32,000 nucleotides of DNA from Geotalea uraniireducens Rf4 (lineage in GTDB: Bacteria; Desulfobacterota; Desulfuromonadia; Geobacterales; Geobacteraceae). How positions within the stretch are numbered: the first letter of the stretch is position 1; each line of letters begins with the position of its first letter. Position numbers and translations under genes: made by a program. The notes under the pieces were generated by a model that was not told the origin of the DNA, ran no database searches, and was given only the letters and a program-made list of their open reading frames with translations. The DNA lies in the NCBI RefSeq assembly GCF_000016745.1, contig NC_009483.1:2370001-2402000 (forward strand), given 5' to 3'. Below are positions 2,190 through 32,000 of the stretch, piece after piece.

Positions 2190-2304
2190 ACTTTGTTGTA
2201 GGGCACGTACGTCGAGTCCATTTTAAGCTTGAAATATGGCGTACGGAACGGCTTTTTACAGGGGGTGTACCTTGAGCAATGTTCAGGGGAAGGGTTGGCT
2301 GGCC

Positions 2305-7095: not shown

Positions 7096-7142
7096 GCATA
7101 GGTCTTAAAATCAAGGAGTCGAAATTATCCGGAGATACGTCG

Positions 7143-10100
7143 ATGAGGCAAATCGTCCCTGCCATTATGGCAAAGAATATCTGTGGAGCGATCTCCAGGC
7201 AATGGCTGGGCATGTTTCTGGCCTGCTTTATTTTCCTTGGCGTCATCTGTCAGGCTTTTGCTGCTGGAGGCGACATCGTCTGGCAGAAGGGCGATGCGCA
7301 AGCGGGGAAGCAGGAGTCGAAGTCTTCTGGGGTGGATTCTCTGGGGAGTGTCATCATCACCGGCTATCAGAATCTGACCGGTGACACCAATGATGACTAC
7401 TACACCGTCAAGTTCAAGGCCGACGGTAGCGGTGTCGTTTGGCGAGCTTCGTACGACAAGGCAGGCGGTTCCGACCAGGCCACGGCGGTTGCGCTGGATT
7501 CGAACGACGACGTCATCGTCACCGGCTTTGCCTGGAACGGGCTCAACAAGGACATTCACATTATCAAGTACAGCGGCGCCACCGGCGCGGTCATCTGGCA
7601 ACAAACCTATGACGGTTCGGCGCACGGCAACGACATCGGCGCATCGATCGCGGTGGACAGCCTCGATAACGTCTACGTGGCCGGCTACACCCAGAACGGC
7701 GATGGCAATGACGATTACCTCGTTCTCAAGTATACCCCCGGCGGTACCCCAGTCTGGCAGGCGGCCTATAATGGGGCCGCCAACGGCATCGACCAGGCAA
7801 CATCCCTGGCGGTGGGGATTGACGGCGTCGCCGTGACGGGACAATCCTGGAACGGCACTGCATTCGACATGGCTACGGTGAAGTACGACTTCAGCGGAGC
7901 CAAGCTGTGGGAAAAAAGTTATTCGACCGGCGCAGGTACGTGCATCGGCAAGCAGACCAGTATGGACGCAGCCGGCAACGTGGTCGTTACCGGCTCTGCC
8001 TCAAACGCCATAGACCTGGATATTTACACCGCAAAATACAACGGCGCCACCGGCGCGATCATCTGGGGTAAAACTTATAATGGCGCCTACGACGATGAAC
8101 CGAACGGACTCATAATTGATGCAACGGGTGATGTCTATATAACGGGCTATACCTGGACCCTCTCCGGGACCAACGATTTTTATACCGCGCGCTATAACGG
8201 CGGCACCGGCGCCCTCGTCTGGCAACAGTTATTTGATTCCGGCAACGGCAATACGGATTTGGCCATCGCTACCGGCATCGGGGTGGACCCTTCAGGTGAT
8301 GTGTTCGTAACCGGTTATACCGTGGCAGCAGGGAACTATGACTTCCAGACCATCAAGTACAAAAAGGACAACGGCAATCAGCTCTGGCAGCAGAGCTTTA
8401 ACGGCACGGCCAACGCGAACGACCGGCCGGTGGGGATCTGGGTCACGTCAACCGGAGATGTGCTGGTGACGGGATGGAGCGACAGCGGCGCAAACGATCT
8501 GGATTATTACGTCATCAAGTACGATCCGGGGGCGTTGAATCCTCCGACGAACCTCGCAGCGACCTCCCTTTCCAACACGAGCATCCAGCTTTCCTGGACG
8601 GACAATTCCGGCAACGAGGACGGCTTCAAGATCGAGCGGAAACTGGGAGAATACGGAACCTACGCCCAGATCGCCACGGTGGAGCCGAACACAACCACCT
8701 ATTCCGACACGGGGCTTGCCGCCAACAACTACTATTACTATCGGATCCGTTCGTACAGCGCCGCTAACGGCGACTCCCATTACAGTAACGAGGCCCACGC
8801 CCTGACCGTGGTCGTGAACTTCCTTCCACCGGCTTGGAGCTATCTCTACAACAGCCCGGACAACATGGACGATTTTGCCAATGCCATTGCCGTCGGTCCC
8901 GACAACAATCCGGTGGTGACCGGTTACAGTCTGCGCACTGTCGGCGGGTTCGATTACTACACGGTCAAGTTGAACCGGGCGGACAAGAGCGTCATCTGGA
9001 GTCACCTCTACGATGATCCTGACAGCGAGATGGATGTGGCGAAATGCGTGGCGGTGGACAGTAACAACAGTGCCGTTGTTTCCGGATACTCTCAACTGTA
9101 TTACGCCCCTGCCCAAGGTAACATCAACTCCATCTACACCGTCAAGTATCCGACGACTGGTCCTCCTGAGACATGGCACACCCAGTACAACGGTCCCGGA
9201 GCCATCGACGATCGGGCTACGGCTATTGCCACCACTACCGACGCGTCCGACAATATCGTGGTTATCGGCTACGGTAAGAACGCGGCAGGCAATGAAGACA
9301 TCTATGTCATAAAATATCCATCATCGCCTCTCCTTGATCAGATGGGCAATGCTATTGCCGCCTGGGCCGCCACACCATTTGACGGCGACGGAGATGATAT
9401 TCCGAGCGCCGTAGCAGTAGGGCCGGACGGCAGTGTCTACGTCACCGGATACAGCGAGTCAGCCTCGAATTCGAACATCTATAACTTCTTCACGGCAAAG
9501 TACAACGGGGCAAACGGAACACTCCTCTGGTCCGACATATACAGCGTGACGGCGGAAGGGGATAACCGGGGTAACTCCATTGCTGTAGATGCGTCCGGAG
9601 ATCTTTATGTTACAGGTTCTGCAACAAATGCAGCCGGGAACAAGGATTTCTACACCATCAAATATAGTGGTACGAGCGCAACGGCACAAAGGTTGTGGGA
9701 GCGGCCCTTCGATGGACCAGCCAACGGCGACGACGAGGCGGTGGCAGTGAAGGTTGACCCCATCGACGGCGCCATCGTCGTTGCCGGAACCAGCCTTACC
9801 AATCCCGGTGACCACGACGTCGCCCTTATCAGGTATAACCCGGCCGGCGACGTGATCTGGCAGAAAACGTTGCAGAGGCCTGCCAATGATGACCTTGCGA
9901 CGGCCATGGCAGTTGATTCATCCGGTTATATCTACATTGCCGGCAGCACCGGCAACGGTAGCGCGATAGACATCCTCTCCCTCATTTATGACTATGAAGG
10001 GACCTTTCTTGGGGCGACCTTATTTAACGGGGATGCTAACGGTAATGATGAGTCGAGCTCTATCGCCGCCAATTACCAGGGGGAGGCGTTCATCGCCGGG

Positions 10101-13100
10101 TACTCCACCAACGCAGGCGGCAACGCGGACTACGTGGTGCTGAAACAGACCAACAGCTACATCCTCGTCCCCGCACCGTTCACCGCCACCTCTCCGGCCG
10201 ACTACAGCAAGGTCGACCTTGCGTGGGGGAACAACACCAGCGGCACGGGTTTTCTCATTGAGAGGACCCTTGGGCCGGTAACTCCTTCAAGTACCTGGAC
10301 CCTCATAAATACCGCTTCACCCGGCACTACCAGTCATATGGATAGCGGGCTCAATGCCGGTACCCAATATTGCTACCGGATCGAGGCGTTTAATGGGAGC
10401 CTCATTTCCCGAAAGCTCATATCATGTACAACTACCACATTGCCGACGCCAACCCTGAATCAGTTAGTTACAGTATCGGCTACGGCAATAGATGTCAGCT
10501 GGAACAACGTTGCCGGAAACACCGGCTACAAGCTGGAACGGAGCGCTAACGGCATTACCTGGACCCAGGTGGGGGGGAATCTTGCCGCCGACACAACCGT
10601 CTATCACGACACAGGTTTGACCTCCGGAACCGTATATTTCTATCGGGTGAGCACCATCAGCGGCGCCGGCACCTCTCTGGCGAGTACCATCCAGGCTGCT
10701 CCTGTGCTCAATGCCCCCACGGGAATAACGTCAGCCAAGGTAGACCTGTCGTGGCCTGCTGTCACCGGAGCCACCGGCTACAAGCTGGAGCGTAGCCCGG
10801 ACAATACGACGTGGACGCAAATCGCCACACCGGCCCCGAATGCCACAAGTTACTCGGACACCACCGTCTCCTCGGGAATTCTCTATTATTACCGAATCAA
10901 GGCAGTAAGTGTTACTGGAGACTCCGGCCCCAGTCTTGTCCAGTCGACCATGACCAAGCTTAAGACCCCGGTCCTCAGCACTCCGACGGCCACATCCTCT
11001 ACCCAAATCGCACTGGTCTGGACCGACCTGAACGGCAACGAGACAGGGGTCACCGCCGAGTACGCCGCCTGCAACCAAAACAATCCCAACACGTGTGCCA
11101 ATGTTAACTATGACCCGTATTGGGGCGCCTGGACTCCGGTGACCTATGAGGCCAATACTACCACCGCCACTATCGCCAGCCTGACCCCTGGCCGCACTTA
11201 CCGGTTCCGGGTGACGGCGACACTCACCGGTGCCAACTCCGACCCGAGCACCGTTATGGCAGGCACCACCATCCTCGTCGGGCCCACGAATTTAACTGCG
11301 ACGGCGGCCACCAGCAGCACCGTCACCCTTACCTGGAGCGATATCCTTGGTGAGACGAATTACCGGGTGATCAAGGATGGCGCCGTCCTGACCGGCACCG
11401 GCCTGCCGTTAGGACAGCAGGCAACCACGTACACGGTCACCGGCTTGAGTCTCAACACCCAGTACTGCTTCAATGTAGAGCCCTATAACGCTACCAGTTA
11501 CGCTGACAGCAACCAGTCGTGCATCACCCTCTATGGGCCGCCGACGCTTGATTCCGTAAGCGCCGTATCGCAGAGCGAGATTGACCTGGCATGGACCGAC
11601 GTGAGCGGCGAGACCGGCTACGAGGTATGGCAGAGCCAAGCTACCTATCCGTCTAGTCCTCCGGCCAGTCCCTCCACCGGGAGTTGGAATGCTTACACCA
11701 ACCTGACAGCAACACCGCTTGATGCGGATTCAACGTCGTATCCCAAGACCGGGCTCTCGGTCGGCTATACCTACAAGTACAAGATACGCTACAAACTTCC
11801 CGACGGCAGCTTTTCGCCATACAGCAACGAAATCATGGCAACGACAATTCCTTCGACGCCGAGCCTGAGTACCTCCGTGGTTTCCATATCGCAAATCAAC
11901 CTGAGCTGGGGCAATGTTAACGGTGAGACCGCTTACAACATGCAGACGAAAGCACTTTCAGGAGCAAGCTGCACCACCGAGGACTGGACCGGCATCTCCT
12001 CCACACCGTTGGCCGCGAACACGACATCCACTGCCGTTACAGGGCTTACGGAAGGAACCAGCTACTGCTTCAGGATAAATGCATCCAATTCTGCGGGAGC
12101 ATCTCCCTGGAGTACCGCAGTAACCCAGACGACCCTCCTTCCTGCGCCGACCCTGGATGCGTTGACCGGCGTCACCCAGTCGCAGATCAGCCTCTCCTGG
12201 AACAACGTTACTGGGAACAACGGCTACAAGGTGGAGCTGAGCACGAACAATATCTCCTGGTTGCAGATTGCCACGCCAGCTGCCAACGTGATTACTTACA
12301 ACGACAGCAATCTGATGCCCAACCAGATCTACTATTACCGGGTGTCCACTAAAAACAGCGCCGGAAGCTACTCCTCGCCCCAGAGTAACGTGCTGAACGC
12401 CACAACACTTCCCGTTCCCTCTCCCACCCTGAATACGCTCACAGGGATTACCACGAGTCAGATCACCCTTTCCTGGAATGATGTGGCGGGCAATGTCGGC
12501 TATAAGGTTGAGCGCAGTCTCGATAACATCACCTGGACCCAGATCGCCACGCCGGCTACCGGGGCGACGAGCTATCCCAATACCGGCCTGTCTGCCGGCA
12601 CCCTTTACTATTACCGGGTATCCACCAGGAACAGCATTGGCTACTACTCCGCCCCGAGCAACGTGCTGTCTGCAACCACGACATCGTCGGCACCGATAGT
12701 TACGCTCAACCTGGTAACGGAAGCGCGCATCGACCTCAACTGGCAGGTCGTTCTTGGCGCCACAAACTACAAGGTCATGCGGTCGATCGGCACGGGTGGT
12801 CCATGGAGCCAAGTAAACAACTTGTCTATCGTATATACAACCCTTTACTGCGGGTATTATTCGACACCAACCATCGGCTGCCCGACCCTGGTGCCGGCAT
12901 ACACTTCATTTCCTGATGCATCTTTGACGGAAGACACCCAGTATTGTTACCAGCTCATGGCCTGGAACGCGACCGGCGGCGATTCGGCGCCGAGCAATAC
13001 GGTATGTCTGAAAACACCGGCTGTGGGCGGTCCAATCCTGACAGCGGTCACCCCCCTTAATTCGTCGAAAATTCAACTTGACTGGACGTACAATCCGGCA

Positions 13101-13349
13101 GCTTGCTCGCCCGATCCCTGTGATACCCCGGACGGTTTCGAGGTCTGGCGGCAACTGTTGAGTGGGGAATGGGCGCTCGTTACAACGTTGCCGAATATCT
13201 CCACTTACACCGATACTACCGCCATAGAACCTTTGAAAACCTATACTTACCGTGTGCGGGCTTATAAGGGCTCGGATGAATCGGCGTACAGTAATACGGT
13301 GGGTGCTTCTACTCCGGCTTTCTCAACTGTGGATGGTACCTGCCCCTGA
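7143..13349 (+). CDS. Giant secreted protein: two SBBP-type beta-propeller regions plus ~12 fibronectin type III domains
   Basis: The ORF is open from 7089, overlapping the cytochrome stop. ATG 7143 is preferred: AAGGAG/GGAG lies upstream and a signal peptide ends ...FLGVICQAFA-AG. About 8 blades of the type D-x-A-x-x-V-A-V-D ... V-x-V-T-G-Y ... DYYTVKY-x-x-x-G-x-x-x-W occupy ~7270-8540. One FN3 follows (~8541-8810), then a second set of ~8 blades (~8810-10150). An array of 11 FN3-like units with (S/T)W...GY-K-h-E-R...Y-Y-Y-R-V signatures fills ~10167-13320. Confidence 0.9.
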   Translation: MRQIVPAIMAKNICGAISRQWLGMFLACFIFLGVICQAFAAGGDIVWQKGDAQAGKQESKSSGVDSLGSVIITGYQNLTGDTNDDYYTVKFKADGSGVVWRASYDKAGGSDQATAVALDSNDDVIVTGFAWNGLNKDIHIIKYSGATGAVIWQQTYDGSAHGNDIGASIAVDSLDNVYVAGYTQNGDGNDDYLVLKYTPGGTPVWQAAYNGAANGIDQATSLAVGIDGVAVTGQSWNGTAFDMATVKYDFSGAKLWEKSYSTGAGTCIGKQTSMDAAGNVVVTGSASNAIDLDIYTAKYNGATGAIIWGKTYNGAYDDEPNGLIIDATGDVYITGYTWTLSGTNDFYTARYNGGTGALVWQQLFDSGNGNTDLAIATGIGVDPSGDVFVTGYTVAAGNYDFQTIKYKKDNGNQLWQQSFNGTANANDRPVGIWVTSTGDVLVTGWSDSGANDLDYYVIKYDPGALNPPTNLAATSLSNTSIQLSWTDNSGNEDGFKIERKLGEYGTYAQIATVEPNTTTYSDTGLAANNYYYYRIRSYSAANGDSHYSNEAHALTVVVNFLPPAWSYLYNSPDNMDDFANAIAVGPDNNPVVTGYSLRTVGGFDYYTVKLNRADKSVIWSHLYDDPDSEMDVAKCVAVDSNNSAVVSGYSQLYYAPAQGNINSIYTVKYPTTGPPETWHTQYNGPGAIDDRATAIATTTDASDNIVVIGYGKNAAGNEDIYVIKYPSSPLLDQMGNAIAAWAATPFDGDGDDIPSAVAVGPDGSVYVTGYSESASNSNIYNFFTAKYNGANGTLLWSDIYSVTAEGDNRGNSIAVDASGDLYVTGSATNAAGNKDFYTIKYSGTSATAQRLWERPFDGPANGDDEAVAVKVDPIDGAIVVAGTSLTNPGDHDVALIRYNPAGDVIWQKTLQRPANDDLATAMAVDSSGYIYIAGSTGNGSAIDILSLIYDYEGTFLGATLFNGDANGNDESSSIAANYQGEAFIAGYSTNAGGNADYVVLKQTNSYILVPAPFTATSPADYSKVDLAWGNNTSGTGFLIERTLGPVTPSSTWTLINTASPGTTSHMDSGLNAGTQYCYRIEAFNGSLISRKLISCTTTTLPTPTLNQLVTVSATAIDVSWNNVAGNTGYKLERSANGITWTQVGGNLAADTTVYHDTGLTSGTVYFYRVSTISGAGTSLASTIQAAPVLNAPTGITSAKVDLSWPAVTGATGYKLERSPDNTTWTQIATPAPNATSYSDTTVSSGILYYYRIKAVSVTGDSGPSLVQSTMTKLKTPVLSTPTATSSTQIALVWTDLNGNETGVTAEYAACNQNNPNTCANVNYDPYWGAWTPVTYEANTTTATIASLTPGRTYRFRVTATLTGANSDPSTVMAGTTILVGPTNLTATAATSSTVTLTWSDILGETNYRVIKDGAVLTGTGLPLGQQATTYTVTGLSLNTQYCFNVEPYNATSYADSNQSCITLYGPPTLDSVSAVSQSEIDLAWTDVSGETGYEVWQSQATYPSSPPASPSTGSWNAYTNLTATPLDADSTSYPKTGLSVGYTYKYKIRYKLPDGSFSPYSNEIMATTIPSTPSLSTSVVSISQINLSWGNVNGETAYNMQTKALSGASCTTEDWTGISSTPLAANTTSTAVTGLTEGTSYCFRINASNSAGASPWSTAVTQTTLLPAPTLDALTGVTQSQISLSWNNVTGNNGYKVELSTNNISWLQIATPAANVITYNDSNLMPNQIYYYRVSTKNSAGSYSSPQSNVLNATTLPVPSPTLNTLTGITTSQITLSWNDVAGNVGYKVERSLDNITWTQIATPATGATSYPNTGLSAGTLYYYRVSTRNSIGYYSAPSNVLSATTTSSAPIVTLNLVTEARIDLNWQVVLGATNYKVMRSIGTGGPWSQVNNLSIVYTTLYCGYYSTPTIGCPTLVPAYTSFPDASLTEDTQYCYQLMAWNATGGDSAPSNTVCLKTPAVGGPILTAVTPLNSSKIQLDWTYNPAACSPDPCDTPDGFEVWRQLLSGEWALVTTLPNISTYTDTTAIEPLKTYTYRVRAYKGSDESAYSNTVGASTPAFSTVDGTCP

Positions 13350-15620: not shown

Positions 15621-15950
15621 TCAGCGCCTGATGGTATGCTCTTTAGCGACCACACAATCAGGTTTGGCTGTTCGTTTCCCCTTTTTCGAGCGGTTGTTAC
15701 GCGCCTGACGAATGAGACGATTCGCTTTCGCGTTATTCCCAGTGACACCAATTAATAGGTTGCTCCAAAATACCGTATGCTGTTTGAGCCGCTGACCTTT
15801 TTTCAATTATCTTCCAAGAAAACGCTTCAGGCTTCCTTCTCCAAAGAGGGCTTGCACACCGCGTCCGTACTCGAAGATGTTGTCATTTAATTAATAGTCA
15901 GGTTCCTCTTCTGCGATTACCTGTATTCCAGAGCTGTTTTCAGAGAACAT
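15621..15950 (-). pseudogene. 109-codon reading frame interrupted by two in-frame TAA codons (decayed gene, or three small ORFs)
   Basis: On the minus strand, ATG 15950 opens MFSENSSGIQVIAEEEPDY, ended by TAA (15893-15891). LNDNIFEYGRGVQALFGEGSLKRFLGR follows, ended by TAA (15809-15807). The 61-aa track ORF (TTG 15806) then runs to a stop at 15621. All three are in the same frame. I recognise no family. Confidence 0.25.
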
Positions 15951-15959
15951 TGTAAACTT

Positions 15960-15987
15960 ATTGTATTACGGTATTTTACCTTGTCAA
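15960..15987 (-). promoter_or_regulatory. Near-consensus sigma70 promoter (TTGACA-16 nt-TACAAT) reading toward lower coordinates
   Basis: The minus strand reads TTATTGACAAGGTAAAATACCGTAATACAATAAGTTTACAATG. The -35 maps to 15982-15987 and the -10 to 15960-15965. The first ATG (15950) lies 9 nt after the -10, so any mRNA would be nearly leaderless. Confidence 0.45.
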
Positions 15988-16072: not shown

Positions 16073-17371
16073 TTATAATCCAAAAATTCTTCCGATTGTT
16101 CCCGGAGATATGAGGTCTATGGTCATTAACAGGGTCAGAACGATCATGGCGATAACCGTTAGCCATGCCACAAGGTTAAAACCATGGCCATTAGTATAGT
16201 TTCCCATCAGTTTCTTGTCGTTTATAAGAATAAGCATGAAGATGAGTACGAAGGGAAGTACTGCACCGTTGACCACCTGTGAAAGAAACATGATCATTAT
16301 CAATGGTGCATTCGGTGTCAGGATGGTCAACGCGCTGATGATTATAATTATTGTGAACAGCCAGAAAAACTGGGGAGCTTTTCTGAAATCCTTGTCAATT
16401 CCTGATTCCCAGCCCATCCCTTCGCAGATATAGTAGGAAGTGGAGAGTGGGAGAATGCATGCGGCGAACAGGGATGCGTTGAACAGTCCAAATGCAAACA
16501 GTGTCGATGCATAGTTGCCTACAAGAGGCTTGAGGGCAATGGCAGCATCTGCTGCTGTTTCAACTTTCAAACCCTGCATGTGTATGGTAGAAGCGCAGGC
16601 CACGACGATAAAGAAGGCTACCACAATGGCCATCAGGCAACCGACTATGACATCCAGCCGCGAAAAACTGTACTGATCGATGGTGATCCCTTTTTCAACC
16701 ACCGCCGATTGCTGGTAAAACTGCATCCATGGCGCAATCGTTGTTCCAACAACGCCAATCATGGTAATCAGGTAACCGCTGTCGGCTTGAAATGTCGGAA
16801 CTACGGTCGCTTTCAGAATTGTGCTCCATTGCGGTCCGGCCATAAATGCGGCAATCGGGTAAGCGATATACACCATGCAGGCGACCAGGAAGACCTTCTC
16901 CACGACCTTATAAGAGCCTTTGACCACCAGCAGCCAGACCAGAACCGCGCTGATAGGGACCGAGATGTACTTGCTGATACCGAATATTTCAAGACTGGCG
17001 GCGATCCCTGCAAATTCAGATACGGAATTCCCCATATTGGTCAAAAGAAGGGCAATCATCACGTAAAAGGTTACCTTTACCCCGAATGACTCACGAATAA
17101 GGTCTGACAAACCCTTGCCGGTTACGGCTCCCATTCGTGCACACATTTCCTGAATCACCACAAGGGCGATTGTCGTGGGGATCATTACCCATAAAAGTCC
17201 ATAACCGTATCGTGCGCCCGCCAAGGAGTAGGTGGTAATTCCGCCGGCGTCGTTATCGACGTTAGCGGTAATAATGCCCGGGCCGAGAATGGCAAGAAAT
17301 AGAATGATGTTCTTAACGTTGACCTTACGGATTGGTTTGAATAACTTGACGATGCTGATGCCGGTAAACAT
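16073..17371 (-). CDS. Nramp/SLC11-family transporter with the Nramp-related Mg2+ transporter (NRMT/NrmT-like) site signature
   Basis: 432-aa polytopic membrane protein. The Nramp helix-1 block is GPGIITANVDNDAGGITTYS and the helix-6 block is MIGVVGTTIAPWMQFYQQS. The metal-site positions read D-A-G-G and T-x-x-A instead of the canonical D-P-G-N and A-x-x-M. Confidence 0.85.
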   Translation of the reverse strand: MFTGISIVKLFKPIRKVNVKNIILFLAILGPGIITANVDNDAGGITTYSLAGARYGYGLLWVMIPTTIALVVIQEMCARMGAVTGKGLSDLIRESFGVKVTFYVMIALLLTNMGNSVSEFAGIAASLEIFGISKYISVPISAVLVWLLVVKGSYKVVEKVFLVACMVYIAYPIAAFMAGPQWSTILKATVVPTFQADSGYLITMIGVVGTTIAPWMQFYQQSAVVEKGITIDQYSFSRLDVIVGCLMAIVVAFFIVVACASTIHMQGLKVETAADAAIALKPLVGNYASTLFAFGLFNASLFAACILPLSTSYYICEGMGWESGIDKDFRKAPQFFWLFTIIIIISALTILTPNAPLIMIMFLSQVVNGAVLPFVLIFMLILINDKKLMGNYTNGHGFNLVAWLTVIAMIVLTLLMTIDLISPGTIGRIFGL

Positions 17372-17445: not shown

Positions 17446-18714
17446 TTAATGATGGTGGTGGCGCCTGCGCCTCAATGCGTAGGGGAGAAACAGTTCCAGA
17501 ATGTCGTCGACGGTAACAATCCCCGCCATTTTGTCTTCTTTATCAAGGACAGGAACGGCTATGAGATTGTATTTCGCGATAATCTCAAGAATTTCTTCCG
17601 GTGCCGCTTCCACATCCACTGTTTTCAGATTTGTGGACATAAGTTCTGAAATGGACGAGTTTGGCGGAGCCATGATAAGCTCCTTAAGGCTCACAACTCC
17701 CTGTAACCGTTCATCCGGATTGGTAACGTAGACGTAATAGACTGTTTCCACATCAGGCGCCAGGAGCCTTACTTCTTTTAAGGCGTCTTCCACCGTCAGT
17801 TCGCTGGATATAGCCAGGAATTCACTGTTCATGAGGCCACCAGCCGTATCTTCCTCGTGTTCCATCAGTTCCTGAATGTCCTCAGCCTCCTCAACATCCA
17901 TAAGCCCCAGCAATTCCTGCGCTTTTTCTTCAGGCAGGTCGCCGAGGACGTCTGCGGCCTCGTCCGGGTCCATCTCTTCCAGGATGTCGGATGCCTGCTC
18001 ACTATCCAACTGGCTTATGACACGACTGCGCAATTCCGGTTCCAGTTCGTGGATGGCTTCACCGGCAGTTTCGGTATCCAGGGAGTTCAAGACGGTCTGG
18101 ATATTTTTCGTCGGAATCTGGGAGATGATATGGGCAAGGTCGGCCGGGTGCAGTTCTTTCATTTGTTCGCGAGCCACGGTCAAGGTGAGGCGTGACAGGT
18201 TCATCTCCAGAAGTTGCACGTATTCCCAGCTTATGTGCTGGTGTGGAAGCTGTTTTTTCAGAATGCCCGCAATTTTCTCTCCCAGATGTTCGTATCCGAG
18301 TCGGCGAAGAAGTCCTCTAAAGCCGATATCTACGAAGAAAATACAGAGATGCTCCTTATAGCTTCCCAGTTTGAGATCATTCACACGGACTACTTTTGCG
18401 CCGTTGACATCGACGATCTGCTTATCGAGAATGTCGCGCTTGACCAGGATTTCGCCATCTTTAGCAATGTATTCCGGCAGGTGGTTGGTCGCACCGGCTA
18501 TGGAAATGACAAAGCGGTTAAAAAGAGAAATGCGGTTCCAGGGGATGGAGAGTATGCGCCGCCCTTTTTTGACCAGCAGGTGCGACACTTCAGGGAACAC
18601 TTCACCGGGGACCATGATCAGGTCCCACAGTTTGCCGATCTCATGGCCTTGGGTGTTGATGACGGTTTTGCCGAGTATTGAACTGATAAAAATTTCACTC
18701 ATGACATTATTCAT
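17446..18714 (-). CDS. Soluble PRC-barrel / MgtE N-domain / CBS-pair protein (MgtE cytoplasmic sensor without the membrane pore)
   Basis: The track ORF starts at 18768, inside the riboswitch terminator, so ATG 18714 (or 18702) is preferred. PRC-like segments are GKTVINTQGHEIGKLWDL and ILDKQIVDVNGAKVVRVNDLKL. MgtE_N-like acidic helices follow (LHPADLAHIISQIP...EEMDPDEAADVLGDLPEEKAQELL...EDIQELMEHEEDTAGGLM). A CBS pair runs to IVTVDDILELF. The protein ends LPYALRRRRHHHH with no hydrophobic helix. Confidence 0.85.
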   Translation of the reverse strand: MNNVMSEIFISSILGKTVINTQGHEIGKLWDLIMVPGEVFPEVSHLLVKKGRRILSIPWNRISLFNRFVISIAGATNHLPEYIAKDGEILVKRDILDKQIVDVNGAKVVRVNDLKLGSYKEHLCIFFVDIGFRGLLRRLGYEHLGEKIAGILKKQLPHQHISWEYVQLLEMNLSRLTLTVAREQMKELHPADLAHIISQIPTKNIQTVLNSLDTETAGEAIHELEPELRSRVISQLDSEQASDILEEMDPDEAADVLGDLPEEKAQELLGLMDVEEAEDIQELMEHEEDTAGGLMNSEFLAISSELTVEDALKEVRLLAPDVETVYYVYVTNPDERLQGVVSLKELIMAPPNSSISELMSTNLKTVDVEAAPEEILEIIAKYNLIAVPVLDKEDKMAGIVTVDDILELFLPYALRRRRHHHH

Positions 18715-18724
18715 AACTGGTTCC

Positions 18725-18760
18725 ACAATATAAAAGGCCCTTTCAGGGAGAAAGGGCCTT
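18725..18760 (-). terminator. Intrinsic terminator forming the expression platform of the M-box riboswitch
   Basis: The minus strand reads AAGGCCCUUU-CUCCCUG-AAAGGGCCUU, followed by UUUAUAUUGUGG. This is a 10-bp GC-rich stem, a 7-nt loop and a U-rich tail, sitting ~10 nt before the start codon. Confidence 0.75.
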
Positions 18761-18780
18761 ATACGCAAAAGGGCACGACT

Positions 18781-18948
18781 TTCCCCTGGTTTGAGTTTCA
18801 GCAGTGCACAACGTAGGTCGAAAATGACAACCAGCTACATTAGATAAAGCCTTAATCCGACTAAACCTGGTCTACCGCATTGGCGTCTTTCGACGTTTCT
18901 GGGCAGTAGCTTTTGTTTGTGCAAACGCCTCTTCCTAACGAGGAATTA
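18781..18948 (-). promoter_or_regulatory. M-box (ykoK-leader class) Mg2+-sensing riboswitch
   Basis: The minus strand reads UUCCUCGUUAGGAAGAGGC-GUUUGCACAAAC-AAAAGCUACUGCCCAGAAACGUCGAAAGACGCCAAUGCGGUAGAC...UCGGAUUAAGGCUUUAUCUAAUGUAGCUGGUUGUC...CCUACGUUGUGCACUGCUGAAACUCAAACCAGGGGAA. These blocks match, in order, the conserved M-box core as I remember the B. subtilis mgtE leader. P1 can form between UUCCUC and GGGGAA. Confidence 0.8.
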
Positions 18949-18957
18949 CGACTAAAA

Positions 18958-18986
18958 TTTATATTCCCGGTCGGATTATTTGTCAA
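18958..18986 (-). promoter_or_regulatory. Near-consensus sigma70 promoter (TTGACA-17 nt-TATAAA) driving the M-box operon
   Basis: The minus strand reads AGGGTTGACAAATAATCCGACCGGGAATATAAATTTTAGT. The -35 maps to 18981-18986 and the -10 to 18958-18963. The predicted start lies a few nt before the riboswitch P1. Confidence 0.65.
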
Positions 18987-19116
18987 CCCTTTGTTTGGTT
19001 TCTGCTTGTCAGTCTCTGCTGCAGCGGTAGTGACGCCAACGGCGCAGGCTGGTCTGAAGATTGACACCCCATATTTTTACTGTTACCTTATGGCAAACTT
19101 ACTAATGGAGACAGGC

Positions 19117-19899
19117 ATGCAATTTCCAAACTTCGACCCGGTTTTCCTTCGTTTGGGTCCCCTTGAGTTTCGTTGGTACGGCCTCATGTATATTATCGGT
19201 TTTGTGAGCGCCTATTTTATCATCAAGGCCGGCGTCAGGCGAAAAAACGTTCCTCTGACCAAGGACGATGTGGCGGATCTTATTTTTTCTGTGGCTCTCG
19301 GCATCATTCTCGGTGGCCGTTTCGGCTACATTCTATTTTATAATTTTTCCTACTATCTCGCCCATCCCCTCAAGTTCTTTGCCGTGTGGGAAGGGGGGAT
19401 GTCCTTTCATGGCGGGTTGATCGGAGCCGTTCTGGCTGGATTATATTATATCAGAAAGAAGAAAATTGCCTTTTATCAAATAGCCGATGTCGGCTTTCTT
19501 GCCGCACCGGTAGGCCTTGGGTTGGGGAGGGTCGGCAATTTCATAAACGGTGAACTGTATGGACGGGTTACCGATGCCCCCTGGGGGATGGTCTTTCCCA
19601 CCGGCGGTAATCTTCCGCGTCATCCTTCGCAACTTTACGAGGCTTTTCTCGAAGGTCCGCTGATGTTTGTGATCCTCTGGGTGATTGGCAGGAAAGAACA
19701 TCCTGCAGGTGTTATATTCTGGGCATTTATCTGTATGTATGGTCTTTTTCGATTTATTGTGGAGTTTTTCCGCGAACCGGATAGCCAGATCGGTTTCATT
19801 CTAGGTGGTCTTTCCATGGGACAGATGTTGAGTTTGCCGATGTTCTTACTGGGTGGGGGGATGATCGTCTGGCTGTATGGCAGGAGGAAAGTGCGTTAA
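19117..19899 (+). CDS. lgt: Prolipoprotein diacylglyceryl transferase
   Basis: MQFPNFDPVFLRLGPLEFRWYGLMYIIGF at the N-terminus, GGMSFHGGLIGAVLAG, and the Lgt signature GRVGNFINGELYGR. GGAG lies 7 nt before ATG 19117. The longer track ORF from 18913 would overlap the divergent promoter and riboswitch region. Confidence 0.92.
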   Translation: MQFPNFDPVFLRLGPLEFRWYGLMYIIGFVSAYFIIKAGVRRKNVPLTKDDVADLIFSVALGIILGGRFGYILFYNFSYYLAHPLKFFAVWEGGMSFHGGLIGAVLAGLYYIRKKKIAFYQIADVGFLAAPVGLGLGRVGNFINGELYGRVTDAPWGMVFPTGGNLPRHPSQLYEAFLEGPLMFVILWVIGRKEHPAGVIFWAFICMYGLFRFIVEFFREPDSQIGFILGGLSMGQMLSLPMFLLGGGMIVWLYGRRKVR

Positions 19900-19927: not shown

Positions 19928-20353
19928 CTATTGCAATCTTTTTTTCATTTCAAGGACATTGCCGTCACAGACTTTCCTGTAGCAGACGGAATCCATCAGC
20001 GATTTTATCATGTATATGCCGCGACCACGGTCCTCCAACTCCTCAAAGTTAGGTGCAGGGATGGTGTTGATATCGAATCCCTGGCCAAAATCGTAAACCT
20101 TGATGGTTAAATCATCTTCGCAGATGTTTATCACAATATGTACCATTTTGTCAGGGTCGCCGGTGTTTGCGTGCTTGATGGCGTTTACCATCGCCTCGGT
20201 CAGGACCAGGTTCAAATGATAGGCGAGGGTATCCCGGTCGCCGGTATACTTAACCAGTTCCTTGGCGATATCTTCTCCAATTCTGCCGATAAGACTCAAA
20301 TAGCGAGTCTGGTTGGGGACCTTGATATCAACCTCTATTTCATTCTTTTCCAT
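19928..20353 (-). CDS. Anti-sigma-factor-type serine kinase (RsbW/SpoIIAB-like GHKL ATPase)
   Basis: 141 aa. The N-box is EAMVNAIKHAN, G1 is VYDFGQGFD and G2 is GRGIYMIKSLMD. It lies directly downstream of a STAS gene. Confidence 0.85.
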   Translation of the reverse strand: MEKNEIEVDIKVPNQTRYLSLIGRIGEDIAKELVKYTGDRDTLAYHLNLVLTEAMVNAIKHANTGDPDKMVHIVINICEDDLTIKVYDFGQGFDINTIPAPNFEELEDRGRGIYMIKSLMDSVCYRKVCDGNVLEMKKRLQ

Positions 20354-20372
20354 CTGAGCCTCACCTTAATAA

Positions 20373-20708
20373 CTAAAAGTTGTCCAGTGCTTCGGAAGTG
20401 GAGGAGAATATCTCGAATACCCTGTGCAGTCTTGTCAGTTCAAACATCGACCTTACCTGTGATTGGAGTGAAGACAGTTTAAGGATTCCCTGATGGGAAA
20501 TGGCGTTTTTAAAGCCCGAAACGAGCGCTCCCAAACCTGAGCTGTCGATAAAGCGAACGTCCTTCAGGTCTACCAGCACATTCTTCTTGCCTTCTTCAAA
20601 AAGTCTCTGCACCTCTATTTTCAACTCTCCAGAGTTGTGGGCGTCGAGTCTCTCCTCTTTTACATAGATAATTACGACGTCATTCCTTGTTTCGGTTTGA
20701 AGATTCAT
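20373..20708 (-). CDS. STAS-domain anti-anti-sigma factor (RsbV/SpoIIAA-like)
   Basis: 111 aa. VLVDLKDVRFIDSSGLGALV contains the conserved phosphorylatable Ser context (DSSGL). GGAG lies 6 nt before the ATG. Confidence 0.88.
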   Translation of the reverse strand: MNLQTETRNDVVIIYVKEERLDAHNSGELKIEVQRLFEEGKKNVLVDLKDVRFIDSSGLGALVSGFKNAISHQGILKLSSLQSQVRSMFELTRLHRVFEIFSSTSEALDNF

Positions 20709-20762
20709 GCCATGCTCCTGTGAGTTAACTCGCTGTTTATTTTGATTTTGCCTTTAAATATA

Positions 20763-20791
20763 GTTATATAGCAATGCGGCTGGTGGTTCAA
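20763..20791 (-). promoter_or_regulatory. Candidate sigma70 promoter for the STAS/kinase pair (TTGAAC-17 nt-TATAAC)
   Basis: The minus strand reads TTGAACCACCAGCCGCATTGCTATATAAC within the 144-nt gap upstream of the STAS gene. Confidence 0.35.
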
Positions 20792-20852
20792 CTAAATATG
20801 TTGTTCAGCCGGTAAGTCTTGATTTTCGTAGAACGTTTTCAGCCCGCTGCTT

Positions 20853-23800
20853 TCAATCTACTTTCATGACAACCATGGAAATATCGTCCTGCAGCAAAGT
20901 GGATGAAGTATATTCCGTTACCTCCTTAAAGATCCTCTCGATAATTTTCTGGGGCTCATTTTCAAAAACTTCAGTCAAAACAGTGCAGAGCCTTTCTGTG
21001 CCGAATAATTCCCCAGTTACAGTTTGTGCTTCAATAATTCCATCAGTGTAGAAAAGTACCAAGTCACCTTTCTGCAATTGGATACTCTTTCCTTCAAAGG
21101 AGACAGCACGGTTGACTCCAAGAATAAGACCTTCTGCGTCCAGTTCGGTGCAGGCCAACTTTCCACGTCGGAGAAGGATGGGGGGATTGTGGCCGGCGTT
21201 GGCATAGTTGAGGACGCGGCTTTCTGCGTTGTAATTCGCATAAAACATGGTAATGAAGAGTTCGGCTCTGGTCAGATCTTCGTAGAGAAGGTCGTTGAGG
21301 ACGGAAAGTATATCGGTACAGGAAGTCGTCGAATGTACTTGAGCCCGCAGAACGCTGCGCGTTTCAACCATTATCAATGCAGCTCCGACGCTGTGACCTG
21401 ACACATCGGCTATGATCATGTCGATATCGTTTTCACCGCGCAGAAAGTAGTCATAATAGTCGCCTCCCACATGGGCTGCAGGTACACAGTAGCAGGCAAA
21501 ACGAACGCCGGGCAAATATGGGAACGAAGCCGGCAGGAGCGAAAGTTGTATCTGCTTTGCAATTTCCATATCTCTGAGCACTCTGGCGTTTTCCAGCAGG
21601 GCTTCTTCTTTTTGCTGTCGTTCCTTTTCCTTGGCTTCCCGTTCAGAGACGATCTTTACCGCCTGAGCCAATTGTCCGGCAAGACTGCCGAGAAGCTGAA
21701 GGAACGGTTCGGTGAAAAGGCCCACTATCGACTTTGAGAATACCGAGAGAATCCCCATCGGGGGGTCCCCTTCACTGGCGATAGGGATATGGGCGAATGA
21801 CTTTATTCCTTCGTGCTCCATGATTTCTTTAGACTTGGGTTTGGTAAGATACTGCGTGTCATTGACGAATTCCGCTCTATTGCCCAGGAATGCTTCACCT
21901 ATGTGGGTGTCGATTTCCGGCAGCCTGCCGTGTCGGGTAATCTGCTGGTTTCCTGTGCCGCGGTAACAACGGACGGTTAAAATTCCCTGTTCATCCACCA
22001 GCCTGATAACGGCCAGATCAAACTTGAATTCCTTACGGAGCAATTCAAGGAGATCTTCCATGATGATCTGCAGGTCGAGGGACCGGTTCATGATTTCCGA
22101 AGCCCGTAGTCTGACGTAAAGCGCTTCCCGACTCTGGTCGAGTGAGGTGCGGACTGTGCTGAAGATGTCGTACACGGACTCCATTTTTGAGCCGATGTCG
22201 CTCAGGTAGCTTTCGACGATGGCTCCGGCAGCTGCTGCGCCCAGAGAACCGGCCAGTGTTTTCTCGATAAATCGTTTGAGATTCGGCAGTTCAAACTCCG
22301 ACACTCCGCCTTTTCCGTCGATTTCCCTGTTTCCCAGGTATTCACTTATGGCGGAGTGGGCCTGAGTTTCTCCGATGAATTTTGTCATGAGATTTACAAA
22401 TTGCAGGATCGTTACCGGTTTCGAGAGCCGCTTCGTTTCCCACGGCATCTTGATTTGCTCCGGTTCAAAAACGTCAACGAATCTTTTTACCTGCTCCTGT
22501 TCACGTTCATCCTGGCCCAATATGATGGAAAGTGCCAGATAAGCGCCGATATTGAACAGCATGCTCCAGAACAGGGAGTGGCTCCAGATATCAAAGCCGA
22601 CAAGACCGAAAAGTTGTGTGGGTCTCAAAAAGTCCAGACCGAAGGGCCCTTTTGTCAGAATATCGCTTTGCCACCATCCTGATTTCACAAAGGAAGGGAC
22701 GAGCAAGGTGTAAAACCAGATTATGAAGCCGAGGAGCATGCCGGTTATTGCCCCGGCCTTGTTTCCCCTGTGCCAGTAGAGCCCGCCGATCAGAGCGGGG
22801 CCGAACTGGGCGGCGGCGGCAAAAGACATGAGCCCCATGGTGACCAGCATATAGGTTTCGCCAACGATGTTCTGGTAAAAATATCCGAGTAAGACGACCA
22901 GGAAGATGCCGAAGCGCTTCATGTTGATGAGCAGAACCGGGAACCAGCTTCGCGGTTTCAGCCTGACCACGACCGGCATGATCAGGTGGTTGAGAAACAT
23001 GGTGGAAATTGCAACGGATTCGACCATAACCATCCCGGCTGCGGCGGAAAAACCACCAAGAAAAGCGATCAATGCCAGCCAGGAATGACCGCTCAGCAAG
23101 GGGAGGGTGAGAACAAAATAATCGGCATTGGCGCTGTTGCCGGTAAAGAGGATTCCTCCCAGGGCGATGGGCATGACAAAGAAGTTTATCAAAAACATGT
23201 AGACGGGGAACAGCCACATGGCCTTTTTTATATGCTCCTCGTTGGAGTTTTCGATGACCATGATGTGAAACTGACGGGGGAGCAACATGATGGCTCCCAT
23301 GGAGAGGTAGAGCATGGTGAACCAGTTTGCATAGGAGATTTCCCCTGGTTCACCGAAGGTTGTCAGGCGGTTGAGGAGTACCTGGTTTGCATTCATCCGG
23401 GAAAAAATGTCTTCAAAACCGTCAAAAAGAATATAGGTAGTAAATAAGCCGACCAGTAAATAAGCCCCGAGCTTTACGATCGATTCCACTGCTATGGCCG
23501 CCACGAGCCCTTCATGTCGCTCTGAAGAAACCAGGCGCCGAGCGCCGAAGATTACGGCAAAGGTGCTGAGTATCAGCGCGGCAAAAAAGCCTGTTTGGAA
23601 TGTCAATGGGGAACGGCCCTGCATCAGTGGGAGCTGGACCGACGGGTGACCGCAGATGATGTCAAAGGTTGTGGTTACCGCCTTGAGCTGCACAGCTATA
23701 TAAGGTGTTATGCCGAGGATGATGATGATGGTAACCAGTGCCCCGAGCCATTGCGATTTCCCGTAGCGCGAGCTGATAAAGTCGGCTATGGAGGTGATGT

Positions 23801-24092
23801 TGTTTTCCTTGGCGATTCGCACAATCTTGCGCAGCAGGAACCACCAGGAAAATGCGGTGAGTGTGGGGCCAAGATATACGAGAAGAAAATCGAGACCGGT
23901 TGTGGCAGCCTTCCCGACGCTGCCGTAATAGGTCCATGTGGTAGCATAAACAGCGATGGAAAGGGAATAGATATAGGGGTTGGAGATGATGCTTTTACCC
24001 TTCTCCTGCTTCTTGTCAGCGTAGTAAGCGATCAGGAAGAGGAAAAATATGTAAAGGAGGGAGACCCCGATGACCAGTTTGATGCTCAGCAT
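20853..24092 (-). CDS. Sodium:solute symporter (SSS/SLC5)-like membrane domain fused to GAF and PP2C (SpoIIE/RsbU-type) phosphatase
   Basis: 1079 aa. Residues ~1-525 form ~13 hydrophobic helices with an SSS-like N-terminus (YATTWTYYGSVGKAATTGLDFLLVYLGP). Residues ~665-812 are GAF-like. Residues ~845-1079 are PP2C (AAHVGGDYYDYF, MIIADVSGHSVGAALIM, NAGHNPPILL, LVLFYTDGIIEA, QDDISMVVMKV). Confidence 0.88.
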   Translation of the reverse strand: MLSIKLVIGVSLLYIFFLFLIAYYADKKQEKGKSIISNPYIYSLSIAVYATTWTYYGSVGKAATTGLDFLLVYLGPTLTAFSWWFLLRKIVRIAKENNITSIADFISSRYGKSQWLGALVTIIIILGITPYIAVQLKAVTTTFDIICGHPSVQLPLMQGRSPLTFQTGFFAALILSTFAVIFGARRLVSSERHEGLVAAIAVESIVKLGAYLLVGLFTTYILFDGFEDIFSRMNANQVLLNRLTTFGEPGEISYANWFTMLYLSMGAIMLLPRQFHIMVIENSNEEHIKKAMWLFPVYMFLINFFVMPIALGGILFTGNSANADYFVLTLPLLSGHSWLALIAFLGGFSAAAGMVMVESVAISTMFLNHLIMPVVVRLKPRSWFPVLLINMKRFGIFLVVLLGYFYQNIVGETYMLVTMGLMSFAAAAQFGPALIGGLYWHRGNKAGAITGMLLGFIIWFYTLLVPSFVKSGWWQSDILTKGPFGLDFLRPTQLFGLVGFDIWSHSLFWSMLFNIGAYLALSIILGQDEREQEQVKRFVDVFEPEQIKMPWETKRLSKPVTILQFVNLMTKFIGETQAHSAISEYLGNREIDGKGGVSEFELPNLKRFIEKTLAGSLGAAAAGAIVESYLSDIGSKMESVYDIFSTVRTSLDQSREALYVRLRASEIMNRSLDLQIIMEDLLELLRKEFKFDLAVIRLVDEQGILTVRCYRGTGNQQITRHGRLPEIDTHIGEAFLGNRAEFVNDTQYLTKPKSKEIMEHEGIKSFAHIPIASEGDPPMGILSVFSKSIVGLFTEPFLQLLGSLAGQLAQAVKIVSEREAKEKERQQKEEALLENARVLRDMEIAKQIQLSLLPASFPYLPGVRFACYCVPAAHVGGDYYDYFLRGENDIDMIIADVSGHSVGAALIMVETRSVLRAQVHSTTSCTDILSVLNDLLYEDLTRAELFITMFYANYNAESRVLNYANAGHNPPILLRRGKLACTELDAEGLILGVNRAVSFEGKSIQLQKGDLVLFYTDGIIEAQTVTGELFGTERLCTVLTEVFENEPQKIIERIFKEVTEYTSSTLLQDDISMVVMKVD

Positions 24093-30643: not shown

Positions 30644-32000
30644 CGCCAGGCCAAGCCTGGCTGATCTATCTGACTGAAAAGTGTCAGACATGTAAATTGC
30701 TCGTTCACCATGTAGTCGCGGTCTGTCACGAGAGGGTAACCAAACGTGGGGAGTAAGACCGGTTCTTTGTAAGAAAAGAGCGAAGGGTACGATAACTACC
30801 CTGACGACGAAGACGCGAGCCCAGCGCAAGCGAACCCGTTTCGGCCTCGTTACACGTAGTTGACAGTGGCCAACCTTCCGAATGTGGTGAAGCCTGCCAC
30901 CCACCGGTGATAAACGAGCGAAAGAACCGGTGGGACTGTCCGGGGTGATTGGGGAGGGCGCGTGTCGAAAGATCAGCCGAGGAACCTGGGAGGTCCGACG
31001 TAATTCCCAAAGCGAAAGGGTTTCGCCGAAGGGAGAACGCCGACGGGGAATCAATAACCCGCCAAGCGTGTACGGTCGGAATTCGGAGCGGCCCATAGTA
31101 GCCGGGAAGCGGGGTAATGCCCGTGGAGCCAAGGGGCCGTACTTCAGTCATGTTTACACGGAAAGAGAGGAGACCCGCTTGAGCGACAGACGCTCCATAA
31201 CGGAATGGATGGCCGAAGGATTCGAACCTGAACCCGGACTGCCGGTAAAAGTCTCCCTTCTGCGGTGGAAACTGAGCAGCAAGGCCAAACGAGAACCGCA
31301 GTTCCGGTTCTATGCCCTTTACGACCGAATCCATCGTCGTGATGTACTTGAAACGGCGTGGTTGCGAGTAAAGGCGAACAAGGGCGCGCCGGGAGTCGAT
31401 GGTGTCAGCATTGAATCCATCGAGGTGCGGGCAGACGGAATATCCGGCTATCTTGACGAAATTCAAGAAAGCCTGAGAACCAAAAACTACAAACCATCCC
31501 CGGTGCGTCGCGTCTACATCACCAAGCCCAACGGCAAACTGCGCCCGCTCGGCATACCGTGCGTGCGGGACAGAATTGTACAGGCAGCCGTACTCCTTAT
31601 CCTCGAACCGATATTTGAGGTGGACTTTCTCGACTGCTCCCATGGATTTCGTCCCAAAAGGCGTCCCCATGGAGCCCTCGACCAAGTCGGTAATAACCTC
31701 CAACTCGGACGGCAGGAAGTGTATGACGCGGATCTTTCGAGCTACTTTGACAGCATCCCCCACGAGCACCTGATAGTAGAACTTGAGCGGCGCATAGCCG
31801 ACCGGAGTGTCCTCAAACTGATCCGGCAATGGCTTCACAGTCCGGTAGTAGAAGAAGACGGCAGCATCAGCCGTCCCAAACAAGGGACGCCACAAGGCGG
31901 GGTAATATCTCCCCTTCTTGCCAACATCTACCTTCACCGGCTCGACCGGGCCTTTCACGAAGAAGCAGACAGCCCCTACCACTTCGCCAGAGCGCGCATG
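30641..32000 (+). mobile_element. Group II intron, 5' part (3' end outside the window; 5' boundary uncertain by about +/-100 nt)
   Basis: The intron-encoded RT ORF (next feature) is preceded by ~540 nt of GC-rich, hairpin-dense non-coding sequence. This is the usual length of ribozyme domains I-III. GTACG at 30641 is the only GUGYG-like pentamer at the expected distance. Confidence 0.75.
31179..32000 (+). CDS. Group II intron reverse transcriptase/maturase (partial, continues past the window end)
   Basis: My own translation of the frame not listed in the track: ...[55 protein letters not shown]...[23 protein letters not shown]...[14 protein letters not shown]...[16 protein letters not shown]...[25 protein letters not shown] lies 7 nt before TTG 31179; ATG 31209 is an alternative start. 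Confidence 0.9.

Follow-up and report, generated by a model that had tools for sequence, protein, structure and literature searches.

The window, which is the whole 32,000-nt stretch of DNA analysed here, carries a leader followed by two genes on its minus strand. Gene 1 (17446..18714) encodes a 422-aa protein in which a PRC barrel, an MgtE_N domain and two CBS domains were identified with Pfam, and residues 178-409 of this protein match the cytosolic domain of the T. thermophilus MgtE (2YVY) with 146 bits. No match to the MgtE membrane domain was obtained with Pfam, and the NCBIfam mgtE model, TIGR00400, aligned over profile positions 18-250 of 450 with 179 bits, below its cut-off of 232.75. 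Because a membrane domain is missing and the TIGR00400 match is partial and below the cut-off, gene 1 was taken to encode the sensor part of MgtE plus a PRC barrel, without the pore; a full-length MgtE channel was ruled out by the lack of a transmembrane pore domain. A second PRC barrel in residues 90-177 was also discarded, since none was found there with Pfam even at E = 1. An identical 422-aa gene has been called on public contigs.

Gene 2 (16073..17371, minus strand) encodes a 432-aa protein of the NRMT/NrmT type that matches the Pfam Nramp family with 365 bits. The best solved structure for this protein was EleNRMT (7QIA, 417 bits), compared with 113 bits for the DraNramp MntH. The score against any MntH/Nramp structure was at most 114 bits, and the NCBIfam MntH model gave 151, below its cut-off of 430. 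Judged by its sequence, gene 2 belongs to the NRMT clade and not to the canonical Nramp/MntH proteins. These Pfam, 2YVY and 7QIA comparisons bore out an earlier reading of the locus, made from the sequence only, which had placed an MgtE cytosolic-domain protein without membrane domain and then an NRMT-type relative of Nramp downstream of the leader. Among public contigs, the exact NRMT protein occurs in metagenome contigs only. The 74-nt gap between the two genes contains neither a terminator-like site nor a strong promoter, which argues that genes 1 and 2 most likely form one predicted transcript, and their adjacency is conserved across related loci. Gene 2 is followed directly by a 6S RNA gene that has a separate promoter.

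The sequence-only reading had identified the leader as an M-box Mg2+ riboswitch and had proposed an Infernal search with the Rfam model RF00380 as a check. This search was positive. The minus strand from 18949 to 18777 matched RF00380 (M-box, ykoK type) with a score of 133.7 bits (gathering score, 44 bits) and an E-value of 3.6e-30, and the match spanned model positions 1-169 of 169 without truncation. This full-length match confirmed, at the level of sequence and family consensus, that the aptamer is a genuine and complete M-box. The conserved blocks listed earlier were all found on the minus strand and in the same order: GUUAGGAAGAGGC (18939..18927), GCUACUGCCCAGAAACGUCGAAAGACGCCAAUG (18910..18878), UAAGG (within 18856..18848), UAAUGUAGCUGG (18842..18831) and CACUGCUGAAACUC (18806..18793); their likeness to the B. 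subtilis leader was checked against the Rfam consensus alone. In the family-consensus alignment all the core blocks of RF00380 are present, namely GUUAGG..GAGGC, AAACGUCGAnAGACGCCAA, UUAAGG, CUAAUG..AGCUGG and UGC..AAACUC. According to the Rfam structure line, the closing helix P1 is made by the 5' strand UUCCUC (18940..18945) and the 3' strand GGGGAA (18781..18786), the latter being the switching sequence.

A full-length M-box was also found at the same place in 12 Geobacteraceae loci (L001-L008 and L011-L014), with scores of 127.7-140.3 bits, and these 12 species-level genomes together with the window provided a set of 13 leaders for comparison. With the window as reference, mean nucleotide identity to the relatives was 85% in the aptamer, 70% in the coding sequence of gene 1 and 55% in the linker, terminator and tail, and most of the core-block columns were invariant across the 13 leaders. 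For the covariation test, 46 Rfam pairs were placed on a plain MAFFT alignment of these leaders that had not been fitted to the structure. Under the Rfam structure 90.6% of the alignment cells pair, versus 35-46% when the partners were slid by 1-3 columns, and compensatory double changes were present at 6 aptamer pairs versus 0-1 in the slid controls. As read from these alignments, purifying selection maintains the fold of the aptamer. The unconstrained minimum-free-energy fold (ViennaRNA) recovered the terminator and most of the inner helices of the leader, without P1. The absence of P1 from this fold was expected of an RNA stabilised by Mg2+-dependent tertiary contacts, although it lends the helix no positive support, and the fold carries no information on the switch.

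The promoter of the leader was read directly from the minus strand as a -35 hexamer TTGACA (18981..18986) and a -10 hexamer TATAAA (18958..18963) separated by a spacer of 17 nt, exactly as had been claimed earlier. We infer that transcription would start near position 18951, about 7 nt past TATAAA. The -35 region GGTTGACAA was kept in 11 of the 13 M-box leaders, and TATA occurs at identical spacing from it in the same number of related leaders (11/13). This promoter was absent from the output of a simple promoter scan because the rule applied there accepts only -10 hexamers that end in T. From the end of the aptamer to the start codon of gene 1 (18714), which is also on the minus strand and about 10 nt 3' of the U tail, there are 63 nt.

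These 63 nt include an intrinsic terminator. The terminator scan detected a single terminator-like site on the minus strand of the leader, a hairpin of sequence AAGGCCCUUUC-UCCCU-GAAAGGGCCUU (18734..18760) with an 11-bp stem, a 5-nt loop and a folding energy of -18.5 kcal/mol, with UUAUAUUGUG directly 3' and an interrupted U-rich tail, UUUUAUAUUGUG, at 18724..18735. The hairpin and tail described earlier are thus there, with a stem of 11 pairs, counting the basal A-U pairs, and not of 10. All 13 leaders combine a GC-rich hairpin with a U run behind it; the stem sequences vary, and compensatory changes have occurred at stem pairs 2, 4, 7, 8 and 9 as numbered from the loop.

The segment CAGGGGAAAG (18779..18788) encloses the entire 3' strand of P1 and is complementary to CUUUCUCCCUG (18744..18754), which extends from the end of the terminator 5' arm through the loop to the first G of its 3' arm. 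The two strands, CAGGGGAAAG and CUUUC-U-CCCUG, form 10 bp with one bulged U, and the resulting antiterminator hairpin (18788..18744) folds at -14.6 kcal/mol. The pairing itself, its single bulge and the partner at 18754..18744 had been noticed earlier; CAGGGGAAAG, which had been put at 18782-18791, lies about 3 nt away, at 18788..18779. The proposed antiterminator would use the 3' strand of P1 and would be mutually exclusive with the terminator, as had been predicted, and the pairing recurs in 13/13 leaders. In the nascent segment from the P1 3' strand to the terminator loop, that is, the RNA made before the 3' arm of the terminator, this pairing between a GGGGGAA-like P1 3' strand and the pyrimidine-rich 5' arm and loop was the minimum-free-energy fold in all 13 leaders.

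One important question is whether this antiterminator is specific. Among the 18-nt windows of each leader, the one containing the P1 3' strand was the best partner of the terminator 5' arm in 9/13 leaders, and in four leaders (that of the window, L001, L002 and L014) that arm also has a few purine-rich partners of roughly equal quality elsewhere in the leader. In a control in which the last two pairs of the antiterminator helix of the window were dropped, the duplex did not significantly outperform those obtained when the terminator 5' arm and loop were shuffled at constant composition, across the 13 leaders: 23-40 of 500 shuffles were at least as good in three of them, and the remaining leaders were much worse. 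Therefore, the specificity of the antiterminator rests on its conservation and on the analogy with characterised M-boxes, not on statistics, and a specific helix is plausible, and conserved, as a reading of the sequence. Most of the apparent design is a purine/pyrimidine polarity, and the exact pairing register given above is therefore presumed.

Taken together, the locus is very probably the leader of a two-gene operon in which a canonical M-box works as an OFF switch of transcription. When cytoplasmic Mg2+ is high, the aptamer would compact with P1 (UUCCUC/GGGGAA) closed, the terminator at 18760..18734 and its U tail would form, and a leader of about 225 nt would be released by RNA polymerase before it reaches the start codon of gene 1 (18714). 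When Mg2+ is low, P1 would be open, and its 3' strand, within CAGGGGAAAG (18788..18779), would pair with 18754..18744 as soon as the latter is transcribed; this antiterminator pairing would block the terminator and allow read-through into gene 1 and gene 2. The soluble PRC/MgtE_N/CBS protein encoded by gene 1 may be a Mg2+-sensing partner, and the product of gene 2 would import Mg2+. That the switch responds to Mg2+, and in which direction, we infer by analogy with the B. subtilis mgtE and C. acetobutylicum M-boxes. For the characterised elements, the Fig. 1A legend of Shin et al. (PMC4072509) states that 'increased magnesium promotes transcription termination', the compacted aptamer sequestering a tract that would otherwise disrupt the terminator.

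The ion to which such a switch answers could be another one: a true M-box might report chiefly a different divalent cation, such as Mn2+ or Fe2+, in an operon that imports a transition metal. Shin et al. considered that some M-box variants might sense other divalent ions, and in the same paper (PMC4072509) the A. capsulatum NrmT, which has no riboswitch, behaves as a Mn2+ transporter despite an adjacent MgtE-like gene; Mn2+ is also transported by EleNRMT (PMC8806188). Against this stands the aptamer itself, since it fits the Mg2+-sensing consensus at 133.7 bits and its core is not divergent. The NrmT-linked M-boxes of C. acetobutylicum compact with Mg2+ like the B. subtilis element, and Shin et al. 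proposed that an M-box can be taken to mark Mg2+ specificity (PMC4072509). The transporter also argues for Mg2+. The structure and the ion-site logic of NRMT proteins were solved in 2022 with the EleNRMT of Eggerthella lenta (Ramanadane et al., PDB 7QIA, PMC8806188), with which gene 2 aligns free of gaps over about 400 residues (417 bits). In this alignment D41, G44, T210 and Q365 of gene 2 correspond to D55, G58, T224 and Q379 of EleNRMT, and A213 and W215 replace the Met and His of helix 6 of Nramp, as in EleNRMT, where their counterparts would be A227 and W229, numbers derived from the constant +14 offset of the alignment. The ion site of gene 2 has thus kept the Asp, with Asn changed to Gly on helix 1, has Thr on helix 6 with Met changed to Ala and the proton-path His changed to Trp, and has Gln on helix 10. 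The same D/G/T/Q site and the two replacements, Met to Ala and His to Trp, are found in EleNRMT, and T224 of that protein is needed for Mg2+ transport (PMC8806188). This likeness concerns the regulated gene and not the RNA. Gene 2 is thereby predicted to encode an NRMT-type Mg2+ importer, and sensing of chiefly another cation appears very improbable.

A different alternative changes the mode of control, which would be mainly translational, by occlusion of the ribosome-binding site, or would act via Rho as in the M. tuberculosis Mbox, the hairpin at 18760..18734 being incidental. Translational and Rho-dependent M-box platforms do exist (PMC12810186), and the U tail in this leader is interrupted (UUUUAUAUUGUG). 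The M. tuberculosis Mbox belongs to the same aptamer family as the element described here; it controls a small upstream ORF by means of a translational platform and Rho-dependent termination (PMC12810186), whereas this leader has an intrinsic terminator. The hairpin and its U run have been retained in 13/13 leaders with compensatory stem changes, despite a 45% divergence of the expression platform. A search for a conserved upstream ORF within the leader gave none, as there are stops in all three frames and no ORF is common to the leaders. In addition, the purine-rich ribosome-binding region lies 3' of the U tail and outside both alternative helices. The position of this region and the lack of a conserved upstream ORF make transcription termination the best reading, and mainly translational or Rho-mediated control very improbable. 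The last alternative, a decayed or chance resemblance to an M-box without regulatory role, found no support and was effectively refuted by an E-value of 3.6e-30 over the full RF00380 model, by an aptamer more conserved than the adjoining coding sequence across 12 other species-level genomes, and by a fold backed by covariation.

The protein encoded by gene 1 is 84% identical to those of Geotalea toluenoxydans and Geotalea sp. SG265 and 66-77% identical to those of other Geobacteraceae, its N-terminal PRC-barrel region being conserved among the relatives, and among the products of the window there is a cytochrome that bears the Geobacter-specific motif CxxxxCH...CXXCH. The 84% identity to G. 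toluenoxydans and this motif agree with the earlier view that the DNA comes from a Geobacter-like genome. The terminator and the same alternative pairing are present in all 12 of the M-box-bearing Geobacteraceae relatives. No M-box reached the gathering score in the more distant homologous operons (L015 and L018-L060), and none was seen down to E = 1 in L009, L010, L015, L017-L020, L022 and L023. An nhmmer profile of the aptamer, which was the sole method used for L061-L080, retrieved only the 12 Geobacteraceae loci and the contigs of the window itself. The two genes also occur widely as a pair in Nitrospirota, Chloroflexota and other MAGs, and there no M-box accompanies them.

Three Geobacteraceae loci, L009, L010 and L017, retain the promoter (including GGTTGACAA), both genes and the ion-site residues of NRMT behind a leader of about 100 nt from which the M-box is absent; in L010 and L017 the 6S RNA downstream is retained as well. 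This pattern, as deduced from sequence comparison, points to a lineage-specific loss of the M-box, or to its gain in the sister clade. A tie between the presence of an M-box and the D/G/T residues of the NRMT ion site was looked for and rejected, since these residues are nearly universal: the D-G-T pattern was found in 79 of 80 NRMT-match sequences (from 77 related loci, three same-sequence contigs and the window), the remaining one having Glu for Asp. Outside the Geobacteraceae, most loci without M-box carry Thr at position 213, where gene 2 has Ala. The Geobacteraceae have traditionally been included in the class Deltaproteobacteria.

The arrangement found here has been published. By means of an Infernal search, Shin et al. 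(2014, PLoS Genet 10:e1004429, PMC4072509) reported Nramp-related genes immediately 3' of M-boxes, 'mostly in Clostridia and Deltaproteobacteria'. [quoted passage not shown] S5 refers to 'mgtE-nramp operons' whose promoter regions hold M-boxes. In the same study, Mg2+ transport was shown for C. acetobutylicum proteins, and Mg2+-dependent compaction for the associated M-boxes. 'Geobacter' does not appear as a named example in the main text and text supplements of Shin et al., and therefore the conclusion that the arrangement is already known rests on their statement about the Deltaproteobacteria. The sequence-only reading had implied that the locus was unusual, M-boxes being mainly a feature of Firmicutes and this one preceding a split sensor and an NRMT; in view of the 2014 report (PMC4072509) that implication does not hold. 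The locus is a further instance of the known succession of M-box, MgtE-like fragment and NrmT. The small new point is the existence of three loci (L009, L010 and L017) with the promoter and the gene pair and without the M-box.

The closest described counterparts are the Ca_c0685 and Ca_c3329 M-box operons of C. acetobutylicum which, like the one studied here, combine an RF00380 element with a terminator-based OFF logic, a soluble MgtE-domain protein and then NrmT (PMC4072509). In the Ca_c0685 operon, as described there, the MgtE-like homologue is split over two genes, whereas here it is a single gene of 422 aa with an N-terminal PRC barrel. The leader also shares its core blocks and the proposed transcriptional OFF switch with the B. 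subtilis mgtE (ykoK) M-box, the founding member of RF00380 (PMC4072509); the latter regulates a full-length MgtE channel, whereas here the MgtE cytosolic domain is a protein by itself, encoded in the regulated operon together with an NRMT. The PRC barrel of the MgtE-like protein is unmentioned in the available text of Shin et al. 2014 (PMC4072509).

Under the transcriptional OFF switch, the operon may hold two layers of Mg2+ feedback, one provided by the M-box RNA and the other by the protein of gene 1, which would gate NRMT in trans as a detachable sensor of Mg2+. We put this forward tentatively, as a possibility that we regard as rather doubtful. In such an arrangement the regulatory domain of a 'split MgtE' would be lent to an unrelated transporter fold, and L009, L010 and L017 would serve as natural single-layer controls. 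A gating role for the MgtE-like protein was already speculated on by Shin et al. in 2014 (PMC4072509), so its demonstration alone would be new.

As one more Geobacteraceae example of a published pattern, the locus matters little beyond its correct annotation, and any Rfam-based annotation pipeline would label the leader as an M-box. The 13 leaders and the three riboswitch-less relatives could nevertheless serve as a small comparative data set on riboswitch loss and on the evolution of expression platforms. With regard to annotation, the leader should be labelled as an M-box riboswitch, and gene 2 as an NRMT-type Mg2+ transporter and not as MntH. The divergent upstream neighbour is lgt, and public gene calls start lgt near 19117. 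Because of these calls, the TTG-extended ORF 18913..19899, which is on the opposite strand and overlaps the aptamer, was considered an artefact of ORF listing and should be shortened to lgt, with its start near that position.

The open reading frame listed for lgt on the plus strand (TTG start, 328 aa, 18913-19899) overlaps the M-box aptamer, which lies on the opposite strand. In public gene calls Lgt is a 260-aa protein with its start near 19117, and therefore the divergent intergenic region is about 400 nt long and contains the riboswitch leader.

The M-box was searched for in the leaders of the MgtE-like gene of three Geobacteraceae relatives (L009, positions 2850-3000; L010, positions 2870-3002; and the same region of L017), and none was detected even at E = 1. 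These leaders are about 100 nt long and retain the GGTTGACAA promoter. Both the MgtE-like gene and the gene of the Nramp-related magnesium transporter (NRMT) are present in the three loci, and the ion-site residues of NRMT are unchanged. This suggests either a lineage-specific loss of the riboswitch or its gain in the sister clade.

Residues 213 and 215 of NRMT were compared in the related loci L018-L080. Outside the Geobacteraceae-like group, the position equivalent to the Nramp Met is occupied by Thr rather than Ala in most homologues, and that equivalent to the Nramp His by Tyr rather than Trp in many; the Asp, Gly and Thr residues of the site are nearly universal. All of these homologues lack an M-box. 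A fluoride riboswitch (RF01734, 50.2 bits) was observed in one locus, a Bacillota MAG (L025, positions 1715-1776); the MgtE-like and NRMT genes lie about 1.2 kb downstream of it, and the riboswitch probably serves some other gene.

The MgtE-like protein (gene at 17446-18714, minus strand) has an N-terminal PRC-barrel domain at residues 5-69, and the approximately 100 residues that follow, within the region 1-177, matched no family. The conservation of this region extends to Nitrospirota and Chloroflexota, where the homologues match from residue 8 onwards.

On its downstream side the NRMT gene is directly adjoined by a 6S RNA gene (15758-15937, minus strand; RF00013, 52.2 bits versus a gathering score of 46.4), which has its own promoter, TTGACA-16-TACAAT, at about 15960-15987 on the same strand. 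This neighbourhood was seen again in many Geobacteraceae loci: 6S RNA reached at least the gathering score beside NRMT in L004-L006, L008, L012-L014 and L016, and is also retained, with scores slightly under it, in the M-box-less L010 and L017.

Elsewhere in the window, a 418-aa open reading frame (30726-31982, minus strand) had no match in a Pfam search with E up to 0.001. A partner-switching module occupies 19928-24092 on the minus strand and is made up of a HATPase_c_2 anti-sigma kinase (19928-20353), a STAS anti-anti-sigma protein (20373-20708) and a protein of 1079 aa in which a membrane region resembling SSF transporters is combined with a GAF and a SpoIIE/PP2C phosphatase domain. Two giant genes follow one directly after the other on the plus strand (2236-13349); the first encodes a multihaem cytochrome of 1619 aa that contains c7/c3 domains and the Geobacter CxxxxCH...CXXCH motif, and the second, immediately 3' of it, a protein of 2086 aa in which six fibronectin-III domains are accompanied by SBBP beta-propeller repeats.
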